A stretch of DNA of 30,185 nucleotides from the NCBI GenBank assembly GCA_001817685.1, contig MHIV01000010.1, positions 1-30,185 of the forward strand, in the 5' to 3' direction. Under the pieces are notes generated by a model. It did not search any database and had not been told where the DNA came from. It saw only the letters and a program-made list of their open reading frames with translations. Positions 26,216 to 29,909 of the stretch are shown in pieces. Position numbers and translations under genes: made by a program. Each line of letters opens with the position of its first letter. Position 1 is the first letter of the stretch. Source of the DNA: Candidatus Colwellbacteria bacterium RIFCSPHIGHO2_02_FULL_45_17 (lineage in GTDB: Bacteria; Patescibacteriota; Minisyncoccia; UBA6257; Colwellbacteraceae).

Positions 26216-26833
26216 ATGAGTAAAAAAGACTTATCGTTTAGTTTTCTCGCCGCAGTACTAGTAACCGTGCTGTCGTATCCAACGGTTCTAAATGTTGCGG
26301 AAAATCTGACTCAGGCACGGCAAGTCCTAATTTCTGTTGCGCTTGGTGCACTTACAATTATCGGTCTTTTTACACTGCATTTTTTGGAAAGGTGGGTTAG
26401 GGTTCTATGGCAACTGGGAAAGTTTATTGTTGTCGGTGGGCTCAACACATTCGTCGATTTCGGAGTTCTTAATCTTCTCATTATTTTCACAGATATAACC
26501 TCGGGTTCAAAGTTTTCTTTCATCAAGGGTGTCGCTTTTACAATAGCGGTAGTAAACAGTTATTTTTGGAATAAGCACTGGACTTTCGAATTCAAAGAAA
26601 GGAAACAAGGCGAAATTCTCGAATTTCTTGCGGTAAGCGTTGTGGGATTGGGCCTGAACGTTGGCGTAGCATCTTTGCTTGTTAACCAAATTGGGCCGCT
26701 TTGGAACCTTTCCCCGATTCTATGGGCTAATGTGAGCGCCTTCGCGGCTACTCTTTCTGCCTTGGCGTCAAATTTCGTCGGCTATAAGTTTATAGTTTTC
26801 AGGTCAGGCCGCAAGAAAGGGCAAGCGACCTGA
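26216..26833 (+). CDS. GtrA family membrane protein with extra N-terminal TM helices
   Basis: KFIVVGGLNTFVDFG, NSYFWNKHWTF, FLAVSVVGLGLN, NFVGYKFIVF. Confidence 0.9.
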   Translation: MSKKDLSFSFLAAVLVTVLSYPTVLNVAENLTQARQVLISVALGALTIIGLFTLHFLERWVRVLWQLGKFIVVGGLNTFVDFGVLNLLIIFTDITSGSKFSFIKGVAFTIAVVNSYFWNKHWTFEFKERKQGEILEFLAVSVVGLGLNVGVASLLVNQIGPLWNLSPILWANVSAFAATLSALASNFVGYKFIVFRSGRKKGQAT

Positions 26834-26869
26834 AATATCTGCCCCCTCGGCACTAAATCTCAGATGGGC

Positions 26870-26898
26870 TTGCTTTTCCCCGGAACTTGTGGTATAGT
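26870..26898 (+). promoter_or_regulatory. sigma70 promoter
   Basis: TTGCTT (26870-75)-17 nt-TATAGT (26893-98), with extended TG at 26890-91. Predicted TSS about 26905. Confidence 0.7.
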
Positions 26899-26904
26899 GC
26901 CCTC

Positions 26905-27025
26905 GAAGTGAGTGACTATAGTCCTTGCCCGAGTTTCTCGAACAAAGGCTATCATCTTACTTGGTGCGACCCCGCCCTCTAAGCTAATGAATGTTTCGTT
27001 GGCATAGAGGGCGGGGTTCGTTTTT
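26905..27025 (+). ncRNA. Candidate ~120-nt small RNA (two long hairpins), family unknown
   Basis: Begins at the predicted TSS; irregular hairpin 26906-26962; long hairpin 26966-27021; T tract 27021-25. Confidence 0.55.
26966..27025 (+). terminator. Long intrinsic terminator-type hairpin
   Basis: ACCCCGCCCTCTA (26969-81)/TAGAGGGCGGGGT (27005-17), 13 bp perfect; inner GCTAATGAA/TTCGTTGGC, 9 bp with 2 G.U; then TTTTT. Confidence 0.8.
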
Positions 27026-27082
27026 AGGCAGTTTCTCTCTCGATGTTTGTCACGAAGTGTAGCGCAGCTTCTACTTCATGGT

Positions 27083-27088
27083 TATACT
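27083..27088 (+). promoter_or_regulatory. -10 box for leaderless pgk
   Basis: TATACT 7 nt before ATG 27096; no clear -35. Confidence 0.45.
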
Positions 27089-27095
27089 TATTCAC

Positions 27096-28181
27096 ATGAC
27101 TATCTACCTGGTTAGGTTAAACCTGGATATTAAGGGAAAGAACATGAGTCAATCTCTTAGATTTAGGGTTGCGGTCAACTCGGTCGAAGCCCTATCAAAG
27201 AAAAACAACAAAGTTGTAATCTTGTCTCACAAGGGGAGACCAAAGGGGTTCGATAAAGCACTTAGTCTTAGGCCGTTTCAAGCTTTACTATCAAAATCCT
27301 TAGGAAAGAAGGTCGTTTTTCTCTCGACGATAAAAAGCGCAAAAAGAATAATCGATAAGCAACCAGCCGGTACAGTTTTCTTACTTGAGAATCTAAGATT
27401 CGACAAGGGAGAGACAGAGAACAGTCAGAAATTTGCTAAATCTCTTGCTAGCCTCGGGGACGTATATATAAATAACGATTTTGCCACAAGTCACCATGAA
27501 TCCGCCTCGCTGGTCGGAATAACAAAATATTTGCCATCAAGACAGGGCCAAATAATTAAAGAGGAGACAAAGGCTCTTACAAAAACTTTAAAGAATCCCA
27601 GAAAACCATTCGTGTTAATAATCGGGGGCGCAAAAATAAAAGATAAAGCCAGTACGATTGAGAAATTACTTCCGAAAACTAGCGCAGTTCTTACGGGTGG
27701 CGCAGTTGCCAATACTTTTCTTAAAGCGGCTGGCCTCGATGTGGGTAAGTCGCTCTATGAACAACAATTTGTTAAAGACGTAGCAAAGCTTATGAAAAGT
27801 AAGAAAATTATGCTACCGACAGATATAGCAGGAGAAAAAAGCGCAATTCTTGATATAGGGCCAGATACGAGAAAAGAATATTCGAGAATAATAAGCCAAG
27901 CCGAAACTATTGTGTGGGCTGGGCCTATGGGGAAATTTGAAGATAAAAGATTCGCAAAAGGAAGCGCAGCTGTTGCGAAAGCAGTCCTAGGGAACAAGAA
28001 AGCCAACATAATAATAGGCGGAGCAGATACGTTCTCCTCACTTCATAAACGAGTCAAAAGGCAAAGAGTCGCCAACGTGTTTTATTCAACAGGAGGAGGA
28101 GCAATGCTACATTTCCTTGCTGGAGGAAAAATGCCCGCCCTCGAAGCCATTAAAAATGAGAAAACAAAAGCCAGAAAGTAA
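27096..28181 (+). CDS. pgk: Phosphoglycerate kinase (divergent, 361 aa)
   Basis: SHKGRP, LLENLRF, IIGGAKIKDK, LDIGP, GPMG.FE, STGGGAML.FL.G. Start at ATG 27096 preferred over 27078. Confidence 0.93.
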   Translation: MTIYLVRLNLDIKGKNMSQSLRFRVAVNSVEALSKKNNKVVILSHKGRPKGFDKALSLRPFQALLSKSLGKKVVFLSTIKSAKRIIDKQPAGTVFLLENLRFDKGETENSQKFAKSLASLGDVYINNDFATSHHESASLVGITKYLPSRQGQIIKEETKALTKTLKNPRKPFVLIIGGAKIKDKASTIEKLLPKTSAVLTGGAVANTFLKAAGLDVGKSLYEQQFVKDVAKLMKSKKIMLPTDIAGEKSAILDIGPDTRKEYSRIISQAETIVWAGPMGKFEDKRFAKGSAAVAKAVLGNKKANIIIGGADTFSSLHKRVKRQRVANVFYSTGGGAMLHFLAGGKMPALEAIKNEKTKARK

Positions 28182-28184
28182 GAA

Positions 28185-29027
28185 ATGTTAAAGGATACTG
28201 TAGTTTTATATCACAACAACTGCACCGATGGGTTTAGTGGTGCGTGGGCCGCGAGAAAGAAATTCGGCAAGAGAGCAGATTATTTAGGCGTAATTCACCA
28301 CGAGCCGCCGCCACCTGGACTCGACGGTAAAGACGTATTCATAATAGATTTTTCATATTCCAAAGAGACAACAGGGATGCTTCTCGATATAACCAAGTCG
28401 CTAACTTTGATAGATCACCACATAACATCCAAGGAAGTAACTGAAAGCATTCCGAATCACGTTTTTGATAACGATCATTCTGGAGCTGTGTTGGCGTGGG
28501 AATATTTTTTCCCGGGCGAAAAAACTCCAGTCTACTTGGAATATGTAGAAGATATAGACCTTTGGAGGTTTGACATGCCGCGTGCGGAAGACTTTCTTGC
28601 CTTCTCGGCGACTGTCCCATTCGACTTCGAGAAACTCGATGCGATAATCGAAGAATTTGAAGATGAGAATAAAAGAAAAGCATTTCTAGGTAAGGGCAAA
28701 GATCTGCTGGAATATCAGATAAGACTTGTCGAAGAAATGATAGAAGAAGGAGAGGAGGTTAACTTAGATGGATTTAGGGCGCTCGTAGTTAACTCTCCAG
28801 TTTTACCTTCACAGTTAGGTAACACGATTGTCAGAAAGGGATATGACATCGGCATCATATGGGCGCACTCAAACGATGTTATTAGAGTATCTTTACGTTC
28901 TGATAAAGATGGAAAGGTTAATGTCGGGGATATCGCGCAGAAATATGGTGGCGGCGGCCATAAATCAGCTGCAGGTTTTGTTGTTAGAGATGAATCAGAA
29001 TTTCCATGGCAGACAAAAAATACATAA
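28185..29027 (+). CDS. DHH/DHHA1 family phosphoesterase (nanoRNase-like)
   Basis: YHNNCTDG, IIDFS, IDHH, HSGAVLAW, DIDLW, SLRS, GGGGHKSAAG. Confidence 0.9.
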   Translation: MLKDTVVLYHNNCTDGFSGAWAARKKFGKRADYLGVIHHEPPPPGLDGKDVFIIDFSYSKETTGMLLDITKSLTLIDHHITSKEVTESIPNHVFDNDHSGAVLAWEYFFPGEKTPVYLEYVEDIDLWRFDMPRAEDFLAFSATVPFDFEKLDAIIEEFEDENKRKAFLGKGKDLLEYQIRLVEEMIEEGEEVNLDGFRALVVNSPVLPSQLGNTIVRKGYDIGIIWAHSNDVIRVSLRSDKDGKVNVGDIAQKYGGGGHKSAAGFVVRDESEFPWQTKNT

Positions 29028-29416
29028 TTTATACGGACGGGGGATCAAGAGGTAATCCTGGCTCGGCCGCCATAGGTGCTGTTGTCGGAGGTAAAGAGTA
29101 TGGTGAATCAATCGGACACACAACGAATAATGTTGCAGAGTATTCGGCGGTAATATTCGCTCTGAAGAAAGCAAAACAGCTTCTCACAAAAAAGAAAGCA
29201 GAGCAAACCGACGTCGAGCTTCGTACGGACAGTGAGCTTTTAGTGAAACAACTGAAAGGTGAATATAAAATCAAAGACTCTAACTTACAACCACTCTTCA
29301 TCGAAGTTTGGAATTTAAAACAAGATTTCAAGAGCGTGACATTTACGCACGTGACACGGGACAAGAACAAGCAAGCCGATTCTCTCGTCAATAGAGCGTT
29401 AAATATGCTTCTATAA
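29006..29416 (+). CDS. rnhA: Ribonuclease HI family protein
   Basis: YTDGGSRGNPG, TNNVAEY, TDSELLVKQLKGEYKIK, HVTRDKNKQADSLVN. Confidence 0.93.
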   Translation: MADKKYIIYTDGGSRGNPGSAAIGAVVGGKEYGESIGHTTNNVAEYSAVIFALKKAKQLLTKKKAEQTDVELRTDSELLVKQLKGEYKIKDSNLQPLFIEVWNLKQDFKSVTFTHVTRDKNKQADSLVNRALNMLL

Positions 29417-29471: not shown

Positions 29472-29866
29472 GGAGGTAATCCAGATAGTAGCTTTTCTCT
29501 AGAAGTTTCCATTATCGGTCATCGACTGCTCTTCACATTCGGAAACCCAAAGGAGTAAAGAGGAAAGTCCGGACACCCCTTCGACTTCGGTCGAAGAGCA
29601 AGGTAGCGGGTAACGCCCGTCGCACGTAAGTGTAGAGGTGCGAGCAGTAACGGTCTCGACTCGCAAGAGTCGGACGAACCCAATCCCAACGTAGAAGGTT
29701 CTGCTTGGCTATAGGGATAAGAAAGCCAAGATGAAACGGCAAAATCCTTACCCGGGTGCAAGGTCGTACTCCGACTTCGGTTGGAGAGTACCGCATGAGC
29801 CCGAGAGTAATCGAGGGTCTAGATAAATTACTATCAGATACAGAATCCGGCTTACGGATTGCCTCC
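29472..29866 (+). ncRNA. rnpB: RNase P RNA (~395 nt)
   Basis: Universal GAGGAAAGTCC (29560-70) and ACAGAATCCGGCTTA near the 3' end; P1 GGAGGTAATCC/GGATTGCCTCC; P2 GATAGTAG/TTACTATC; P8 CGGGTAACGCCCG. Confidence 0.97.
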
Positions 29867-29909
29867 AAAACAGGACTATCTCCCAAGATAGTCCTGCTTT
29901 GTTTTTTTT
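29867..29909 (+). terminator. rnpB intrinsic terminator (potentially bidirectional)
   Basis: CAGGACTATCT-CCCA-AGATAGTCCTG, perfect 11-bp stem; T-rich tail on the plus strand and AAAA on the 5' side. Confidence 0.85.

Follow-up and report, generated by a model that had tools for sequence, protein, structure and literature searches.

Results

A candidate small RNA gene between gtrA and pgk

The window is the whole stretch of Candidatus Colwellbacteria DNA that was analysed (30,185 nt; genome G000). On its plus strand, a gene for a GtrA-like membrane protein and the phosphoglycerate kinase gene pgk enclose a promoter, a rod-like hairpin and an intrinsic terminator (Table 1). A first-pass annotation, made from the letters alone, had described this interval as a stand-alone transcription unit without a gene. 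Its promoter, hairpins, U tract, 24-codon GTG ORF and 10-bp palindrome were all found in place when the sequence was read again. Of the second hairpin, the presence and the U tract that follows it were confirmed; its length, given as 22 bp, was revised to two 23-nt arms.

Table 1. Features of the small RNA locus and its flanking genes in the window. Positions are those of the window; MFE, minimum free energy.
Feature	Position	Strand	Evidence or remark
GtrA-like membrane protein gene, 205 aa	26216..26833	+	Pfam PF04138, E=1.3e-20
-35 hexamer TTGCTT	26870-26875	+	read from sequence
Extended -10 box TGg-TATAGT	26890-26898	+	17-nt spacer to TTGCTT; read from sequence
Predicted RNA 5' end with near-invariant core GAAGUGAGUG (family consensus A-R-UGAGUG)	26905-26914	+	
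Rod-like hairpin, 57 nt	26906-26962	+	MFE fold and covariance model
P1	26906-15 pairs with 26952-62	+	MFE fold
P2	26919-27 pairs with 26943-51	+	MFE fold
P3 CGAG-UUU-CUCG	26930-40	+	MFE fold
Single-stranded linker GGUGCG	26963-26968	+	UUUGUKG in most relatives (alignments A5, A6)
Intrinsic terminator, 23-nt arms 26969-91 and 26995-27017, then GUUCGUUUUU	26969-27025	+	arms 87% complementary
U tract after terminator hairpin	27021-25	+	
pgk -10 box TATACT	27083..27088	+	7 nt before ATG 27096; read from sequence
pgk (phosphoglycerate kinase)	27096..28181	+	Pfam PF00162, E=1.9e-96

Judging from the spacing to the -10 box, transcription of the small RNA would start at about 26905. The predicted RNA is about 122 nt long in the window, and a length of about 95-120 nt is also given for the gene. 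The RNA from 26900 to 27027 folded at -62.5 kcal/mol, against -32.6 +/- 3.4 kcal/mol for dinucleotide shuffles (z = -8.85). Within P1, AAGUGAG (26906-12) pairs with CUUACUU (26956-62), and the segment 26903-26970 scored 69.3 bits under covariance model R1. The plus strand had been preferred on account of G.U pairs, and this preference was borne out: 34, 24, 33 and 49 G.U cells occur at four pairs of alignment A6, and the minus strand of the same segment folds more weakly (-54.0 kcal/mol).

The small RNA promoter of the window matches the consensus hexamers at 8 of 12 positions and carries the extended TG. A generic scanner overlooked both this promoter and the terminator because its thresholds (at least 9 of 12 hexamer matches; a terminator loop of 3-8 nt) exclude them. 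We judged both to be real because their position is conserved among the homologues, in 60 of 60 for the promoter and 57 of 60 for the terminator. An imperfect inverted repeat of 14 nt (26849-26862/26888-26901; 79% complementary) brackets the promoter in the 3' untranslated stretch of gtrA, and it may be a chance occurrence.

The spacing of the pgk -10 box implies that the pgk mRNA would be leaderless, and in five relatives (G019, G023, G020, G065 and G010) a TGnTATAAT-like box is found 7-10 nt upstream of the pgk start codon. The true pgk start is probably at 27096 and not at 27078; the N-terminus MTIYLVRLNLDIKG aligns with MKTYLVRLNLDIKE of G019. The N-terminus of the window PGK is short, and its Pfam match begins at profile position 17. 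Further downstream, a DHH/DHHA1 phosphoesterase gene (28185-29027) and the start of an RNase H gene (29006-29416) have 22 nt in common, and the latter gene stands directly upstream of rnpB (29473-29869).

Homologues and distribution

BLAST searches of 40 relatives gave co-linear matches upstream of pgk in G016 and G019, and a pattern search added G052 and G053. Covariance models were built in three rounds, from 5 (R1), 12 (R2) and 40 (R3) sequences. With R1, the RNA was found in at least 14 of the 53 genomes of the family. In the order, the covariance models detected it in at least 56 of 151 sampled genomes, including Colwell-, Harrison- and Liptonbacteria. Each of these 56 positive genomes gave exactly one hit, that of the window included. 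About 146 genomes of other orders of the class gave no match; matches in the class sample were limited to G000 and two further genomes of its order. Within the order, PGK is only about 50% identical between genomes.

The covariance models overlook diverged copies. One such copy stands directly after gtrA in G041, a member of the same family; all that remains there is the promoter and AGAGUGAGUG, followed by an unrelated hairpin and a terminator. With a promoter-plus-core pattern (TTGAC-N18-20-TANNNT-N5-9-RTGAGTG), 32 matches were obtained, compared with 4 for a reversed control, and the pattern brought in members from six more families (f3, f10, f16, f18, f21 and f30). Besides G041, the members in G038, G123, G150, G033 and G120 are diverged in the same manner: the promoter, RUGAGUG, some hairpin and a terminator are all that they retain. 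In a metagenome collection, 40 of 66 pattern matches were true members by covariance model. Carriers in public records are labelled Candidatus Colwellbacteria, Harrisonbacteria, Liptonbacteria and Paceibacterota.

Two loci gave partial resemblances. G096 holds, besides its true copy, a second promoter-plus-AUGAGUG match (L155, G096:C30:17334-17378), the downstream fold of which is unlike the family; it is probably a chance match. On the minus strand of L087 (G073:C5:50200-50960), in a genome where the models gave no hit, a promoter-like TTGTTATAAT and a different hairpin, GGGACAGCG...CGCUGUCCC, lie about 150-260 nt past the gtrA stop codon. The loop of this hairpin contains CACUCAC, the complement of the family core, which may be chance or the mark of a rearranged relative.

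Many metagenome runs from groundwater, sediment and soil contain the DNA of the locus. In four metatranscriptome runs of related groundwater studies no contig matched 26200-27700, and none of the public RNA runs listed contains the small RNA sequence.

The long terminator hairpin of the window (26966-27021; 23-nt arms) is common only to G016 (L005 338-405, 84% identity); terminators of the other relatives are short and of the UUCG type. GC-rich hairpins resembling the long arms are repeated in G025, with 11 short matches on several contigs, and the long arm may have originated from a GC hairpin that is repeated or mobile. One might extend this origin to the whole element and see in it a mobile hairpin, a MITE or a REP-like repeat that came to lie between gtrA and pgk by chance. 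We consider that this is almost certainly not the case. The element is present only once in its own genome and once in each of the 56 positive genomes, it lacks terminal repeats, its promoter is conserved and its helices covary. Such an origin could apply at most to the long terminator arm of G000 and G016.

Consensus, structure and covariation

Family figures refer to 60 distinct sequences in alignment A6. A sigma-70 promoter was found at a fixed distance in all 60, with 7-12 of 12 hexamer matches; 43 of the 60 have at least 9, and nine have the perfect TTGACA-16/17-TATAAT. The -35 box is TTGnnn in every case, mostly TTGACT or TTGACA, and lies 16-18 nt before the -10 box. From the end of the -10 box to RUGAGUG the distance is mostly 7-10 nt (range 4-11). 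A GC-rich terminator hairpin with a U-rich tail stands directly after the rod and U-rich linker in 57 of 60 homologues, and the predicted RNA length in relatives has a median of 97 nt (range 85-125).

The most conserved part of the RNA is the 5' core A-R-UGAGUG, with column values of 95% (A), 98% (U), 100% (G), 95% (A), 97% (G), 93% (U) and 95% (G); R is always G or A. In P1 this core pairs with a variable partner strand. The helix is rich in G.U pairs and often interrupted, and 77% of its cells are paired. P2 has the consensus AAUCCYU with ARGGAUU, shows double changes in 7 of 8 pairs, and conserves the sequence UCC/GGA within the helix. The apical P3, CGAUGAUAUCG, is 85-92% conserved, with double changes in 4 of 5 pairs. 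Over the whole rod, 85% of cells were base-paired in A6, compared with 33-46% when the partners were slid by 1-3 columns. Both sides had changed in 16 of 22 pairs, and none of 500 shuffles attained the observed values; A5 gave similar results. Both the fitting of the alignments to the model and the relatedness of the sequences limit the covariation counts, which are supportive and not a formal test.

P3 has been swapped for unrelated hairpins in several lineages. The window itself has the CGAG-UUU-CUCG hairpin listed in Table 1, G106 and G041 have a UUCG hairpin, and other replacements occur in G052, G053, G045, G011 and the f30 genomes. The apical loop is therefore not essential everywhere. 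The universal features are thus promoter, 5' core, rod and terminator. Across members, the core has a mean unpaired probability of 0.27-0.45; in the window it is almost fully paired.

The conserved core contains a start codon, GUG or AUG, which always lies about 3 nt from the predicted 5' end. It could thus be imagined that the locus is a tiny coding gene, or that the RNA acts as a decoy of the 5' ends of leaderless mRNAs. The restriction of R to G or A, which keeps a start codon in every member, would suit this reading, but pairing with U in P1 accounts for it equally well. The RUG frame runs for 3-70 codons (median 8), and no peptide is conserved past Met/Val-Ser. A leader of 2-3 nt before a paired start codon is also poor for leaderless initiation. 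We regard a coding gene or decoy as very unlikely. The 24-codon GTG ORF of the window (26908-26982), to which the first-pass annotation had drawn attention, has no conserved counterpart, the frame in G019 stopping after 4 codons; nor is the palindrome GACTATAGTC (26914-23) conserved in relatives. We take both to be chance features of this genome only.

Comparison with known RNA classes

A cmscan of the whole window against Rfam 15 at gathering thresholds returned only RNase P RNA (29473-29869), which agrees with the initial impression that the RNA belonged to no recognised family. In a permissive cmscan (E<=10) of 26780-27160, the sole overlap was a chance match of mir-368 to the terminator hairpin, with 19.2 bits against a threshold of 58. 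The second match, to Mu-gpT-DE (minus strand, 27095-27136; 11.6 bits), falls outside the RNA, at the start of pgk. Such searches work on these genomes, since tmRNA was found in all of five relatives, 5S rRNA in four of them, and RNase P RNA in the window. A search of the published full-text literature on structured RNAs of CPR/Parcubacteria and on SRP found no description of this RNA.

Several classes were considered individually. SRP (4.5S) RNA was rejected, as the rod has neither a domain IV motif nor a GNRA tetraloop; RF00169 gave no hit in G000, G016, G017, G019, G052 and G053, and RF01854 gave none in G000, G011, G016, G017 and G052. The 6S RNA forms a rod of some 180 nt that opens into a large central bubble, and RF00013 gave nothing beyond E=5.6 in five genomes; the rod of the present family measures about 57-70 nt and has small internal loops only. 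A disguised 5S rRNA or tmRNA was dismissed, both being located elsewhere in relatives. An antisense RNA of a type I toxin-antitoxin system was likewise rejected: the only ORFs are non-conserved, 20-31 aa long and none resembles a hydrophobic helix, and the flanks differ among families. The neighbouring type I toxin whose search had been suggested was thus absent from the vicinity of the locus.

Neighbouring genes

In 36 of 75 loci where there is room to judge, a co-directional GtrA-like gene stands directly upstream, more often than any other neighbour. In the window and several relatives, the -35 box abuts or overlaps the gtrA stop codon. No other terminator stands between that codon and the RNA, and gtrA transcripts should therefore end at the terminator of the RNA, which the gtrA-like gene probably shares.

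This arrangement raises the question whether the element is merely a structured 3' UTR with the terminator of a gtrA-like mRNA, a stability element in which the promoter-like sequence is fortuitous. The adjacency of gtrA and its lack of an own terminator in the window are what such a reading would predict. Against it, the other 39 of the 75 loci have upstream either another gene (S10, BipA, SIMPL, a hydrolase) or none identified, and some RNA-bearing genomes (G013, G065 and G100) gave no match to the GtrA-like protein. Many genomes with gtrA are without the RNA, and the promoter is kept in all homologues, including the nine with a perfect consensus. We therefore hold a mere 3' UTR to be quite improbable. 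An obligate partnership with GtrA was not supported either, as the gene occurs in 100 of 151 genomes, including families without detectable RNA; 5 of 7 inspected regions downstream of gtrA in genomes without a model hit hold no RNA. Because 39 of 75 loci have something else upstream, we regard the gtrA association as synteny and not as a defining feature.

In 69 loci where the downstream side could be judged, the co-directional gene there is pgk (23 loci), murB (22), hpf with secA after it (11) or another gene (13); HlyD-like and Rce1-like genes are found among the downstream neighbours. The RNA is always co-directional with the next gene, and its terminator lies 50-600 nt before that gene, as would be expected of a cis-acting leader, riboswitch or attenuator that controls the downstream gene (pgk in the window) through regulated termination. 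However, the identity of that gene differs by family, and a conserved -10 box of its own, at the spacing expected of a leaderless mRNA, precedes pgk. In the fold, rod and terminator have no strand in common, hence there is no antiterminator alternative, and the conserved unpaired bases are too few for a junction resembling a ligand pocket. A cis-acting role thus appears highly improbable. On all of these points, namely the absence of an antiterminator, the separate -10 box of pgk and the rejection of a pgk riboswitch, our results agree with the first-pass annotation. Its principal claim, a stand-alone new small RNA, gains support from homologues with covariation, from the conserved promoter and terminator, from flanking gene pairs that change from family to family, and from the lack of an Rfam match.

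Searches for the signal recognition particle

As a side result, neither the SRP54-type GTPase domain (PF00448) nor the M domain (PF02978) gave a hit in G000, and tblastn with an Ffh and FtsY pair found nothing there. Real matches to PF00448 were lacking in 150 of 151 genomes of the order, in all 151 of the class sample and in all 121 of the phylum sample. Among 14 control genomes, all matched the protein families, 13 matched RF00169 and 12 matched RF01854. With no SRP found in the genome, a reading of the small RNA as SRP RNA is ruled out. The result is not new, since both SRP subunits have been reported absent in many CPR bacteria (PMC8080830). Real Ffh and FtsY genes were seen in one genome of the order only, where they lie side by side on a single contig (L069, G185:C16:2958-6533; E=4e-63 and 1e-57), and this pair could be contamination or transfer.

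Discussion

A probable independent small RNA gene

The locus very probably represents an independent gene for a small non-coding RNA of a new family. We favour an RNA that acts in trans and is read through this element because one strand of P1 is invariant and its partner strand variable, because sequence is conserved inside helices, and because a single copy with a near-consensus promoter is kept throughout an order of ultra-small CPR bacteria from groundwater.

We infer transcription, its start, action in trans and a partner as follows. The RNA would be transcribed from its own near-consensus sigma-70 promoter, probably starting 2-3 nt before the invariant RUGAGUG, and the transcript would end at its own intrinsic terminator. 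Upstream gtrA-like transcripts probably end at the same terminator, and the RNA may also arise as a product of their 3' UTR. The mature form is predicted to be a rod-like imperfect hairpin followed by the terminator hairpin. It would act in trans with the 5'-proximal A-R-UGAGUG as the functional site; this element would form one side of a weak basal helix, rich in G.U pairs, in which the opposite (3') strand can vary freely, and the remainder of the rod would serve as a scaffold.

Protein or mRNA as the possible partner

We think that a protein is a somewhat likelier partner than an mRNA. A protein partner, either in a lineage-specific RNP or as the target of a sequestering RNA, is a serious possibility that we would place a little short of an even chance. 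Several observations speak for it: both RNA ends are held in a helix; the sequence of helical segments is conserved (UCC/GGA of P2 and CGAUGAUAUCG of P3); the RNA is kept throughout an order whose PGK proteins are just about 50% identical between genomes; and the complement of a seed is not enriched in the genome. Complements of the core (10-mer with one mismatch) numbered 17 against 27 expected, and CACUCAY was found 70 times against 113 expected.

An mRNA partner is possible but rather doubtful. A base-pairing regulatory RNA of that kind, which we likewise consider tentatively, would use the 5' octamer as a seed opening from the weak P1 and pairing with CACUCAY-like sites. Such sites would probably lie in the 5' coding ends of largely leaderless mRNAs, and cell-envelope targets might be among them, given the gtrA and murB neighbours. 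The invariance of one P1 strand opposite a variable partner would suit a seed as well, as would the weakness of this G.U-rich helix; with the mean unpaired probabilities given above the core is only half buried, and such half accessibility would also be compatible with a base-pairing seed. Moreover, the RNA has its own promoter and terminator, as do enterobacterial sRNAs with 5' seeds, and about half of the copies lie in the 3' region of gtrA like DapZ or MicL-type sRNAs. Several results weigh on the other side. Besides the lack of genomic enrichment of complementary sites, pairing of the RNA with the gtrA translation start was no better than with shuffles in 23 genomes (mean z = +0.2; crude duplexfold, mononucleotide shuffles). 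Neither Hfq nor CsrA was found in five genomes of the family. A purine-rich seed would not mask Shine-Dalgarno sites, and the core is almost fully paired in the window.

Returning to a protein partner, a more specific proposal is that the RNA forms the core of a lineage-specific housekeeping RNP of this Paceibacteria order, an abundant rod RNA whose 5' A-R-UGAGUG is read by a putative protein. We consider this version unlikely. If true, the RNP could serve the translation of leaderless mRNAs, ribosome hibernation or the supply of envelope precursors, and the RNA would be a new 'essential small RNA' beside RNase P RNA and tmRNA in genomes of about 0.5 Mb that lack SRP.

Genomes of CPR bacteria (Patescibacteria) measure about 0.4-1 Mb and contain very little non-coding DNA. 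To our knowledge, almost nothing is known about the regulatory RNAs of these bacteria. The upkeep of one copy, with its near-consensus promoter, in families that share only about 50% identity in their housekeeping proteins suggests that the RNA is needed in these organisms. The alignment, the covariance model, the 5' element and the neighbours define the family, so that groundwater metatranscriptomes can be searched for it and its copies annotated in hundreds of metagenome-assembled genomes. The RUGAGUG element is a concrete handle for finding the partner of the RNA.

Relation to known systems

The RNA shares with the raiA-motif RNA (RF03072) and with orphan RNAs upstream of hpf/raiA a terminator of its own and a position upstream of hpf, in 11 of 69 loci. 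It has no Rfam match, however, and hpf is only one of three common downstream genes. The raiA motif is also longer and more complex than a single rod.

The rod-shaped RNAs of housekeeping RNPs, such as 4.5S/SRP RNA, 6S RNA and Y RNA, are similar in being single-copy and strongly promoted, in forming a long, imperfect hairpin whose 5' and 3' regions are paired, and in having sequence-conserved patches inside helices and conservation over a deep clade. Unlike 4.5S/SRP RNA, the new RNA has neither the domain IV motif nor a GNRA tetraloop, and searches found no Ffh or FtsY; 6S RNA is much longer and has a central bubble that is missing here. In contrast to this group as a whole, its apex is replaceable.

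A resemblance to 3'-UTR sRNAs with an internal promoter, of the DapZ and MicL type, is seen in about half of the loci, which lie directly after the stop codon of a co-directional gtrA-like gene. There the promoter abuts or overlaps the end of the gene, and the only terminator is shared. The host gene is not constant, however, as 39 of 75 loci differ upstream.

Relative to the enterobacterial RybB and OmrA/B, the new RNA has no sequence or Rfam relationship. Its conserved 5' element is base-paired to the 3' part of the rod, it occurs without Hfq having been found in five genomes of its family, and it is conserved over a whole CPR order. In organisation these RNAs are nevertheless alike: each has its own sigma-factor promoter, a length of about 80-120 nt, an intrinsic terminator and no ORF, and the 5' end is the most conserved part. 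To judge from its sequence, the RNA thus belongs to a new family of a familiar kind, the stand-alone bacterial sRNA gene composed of promoter, hairpin and terminator.
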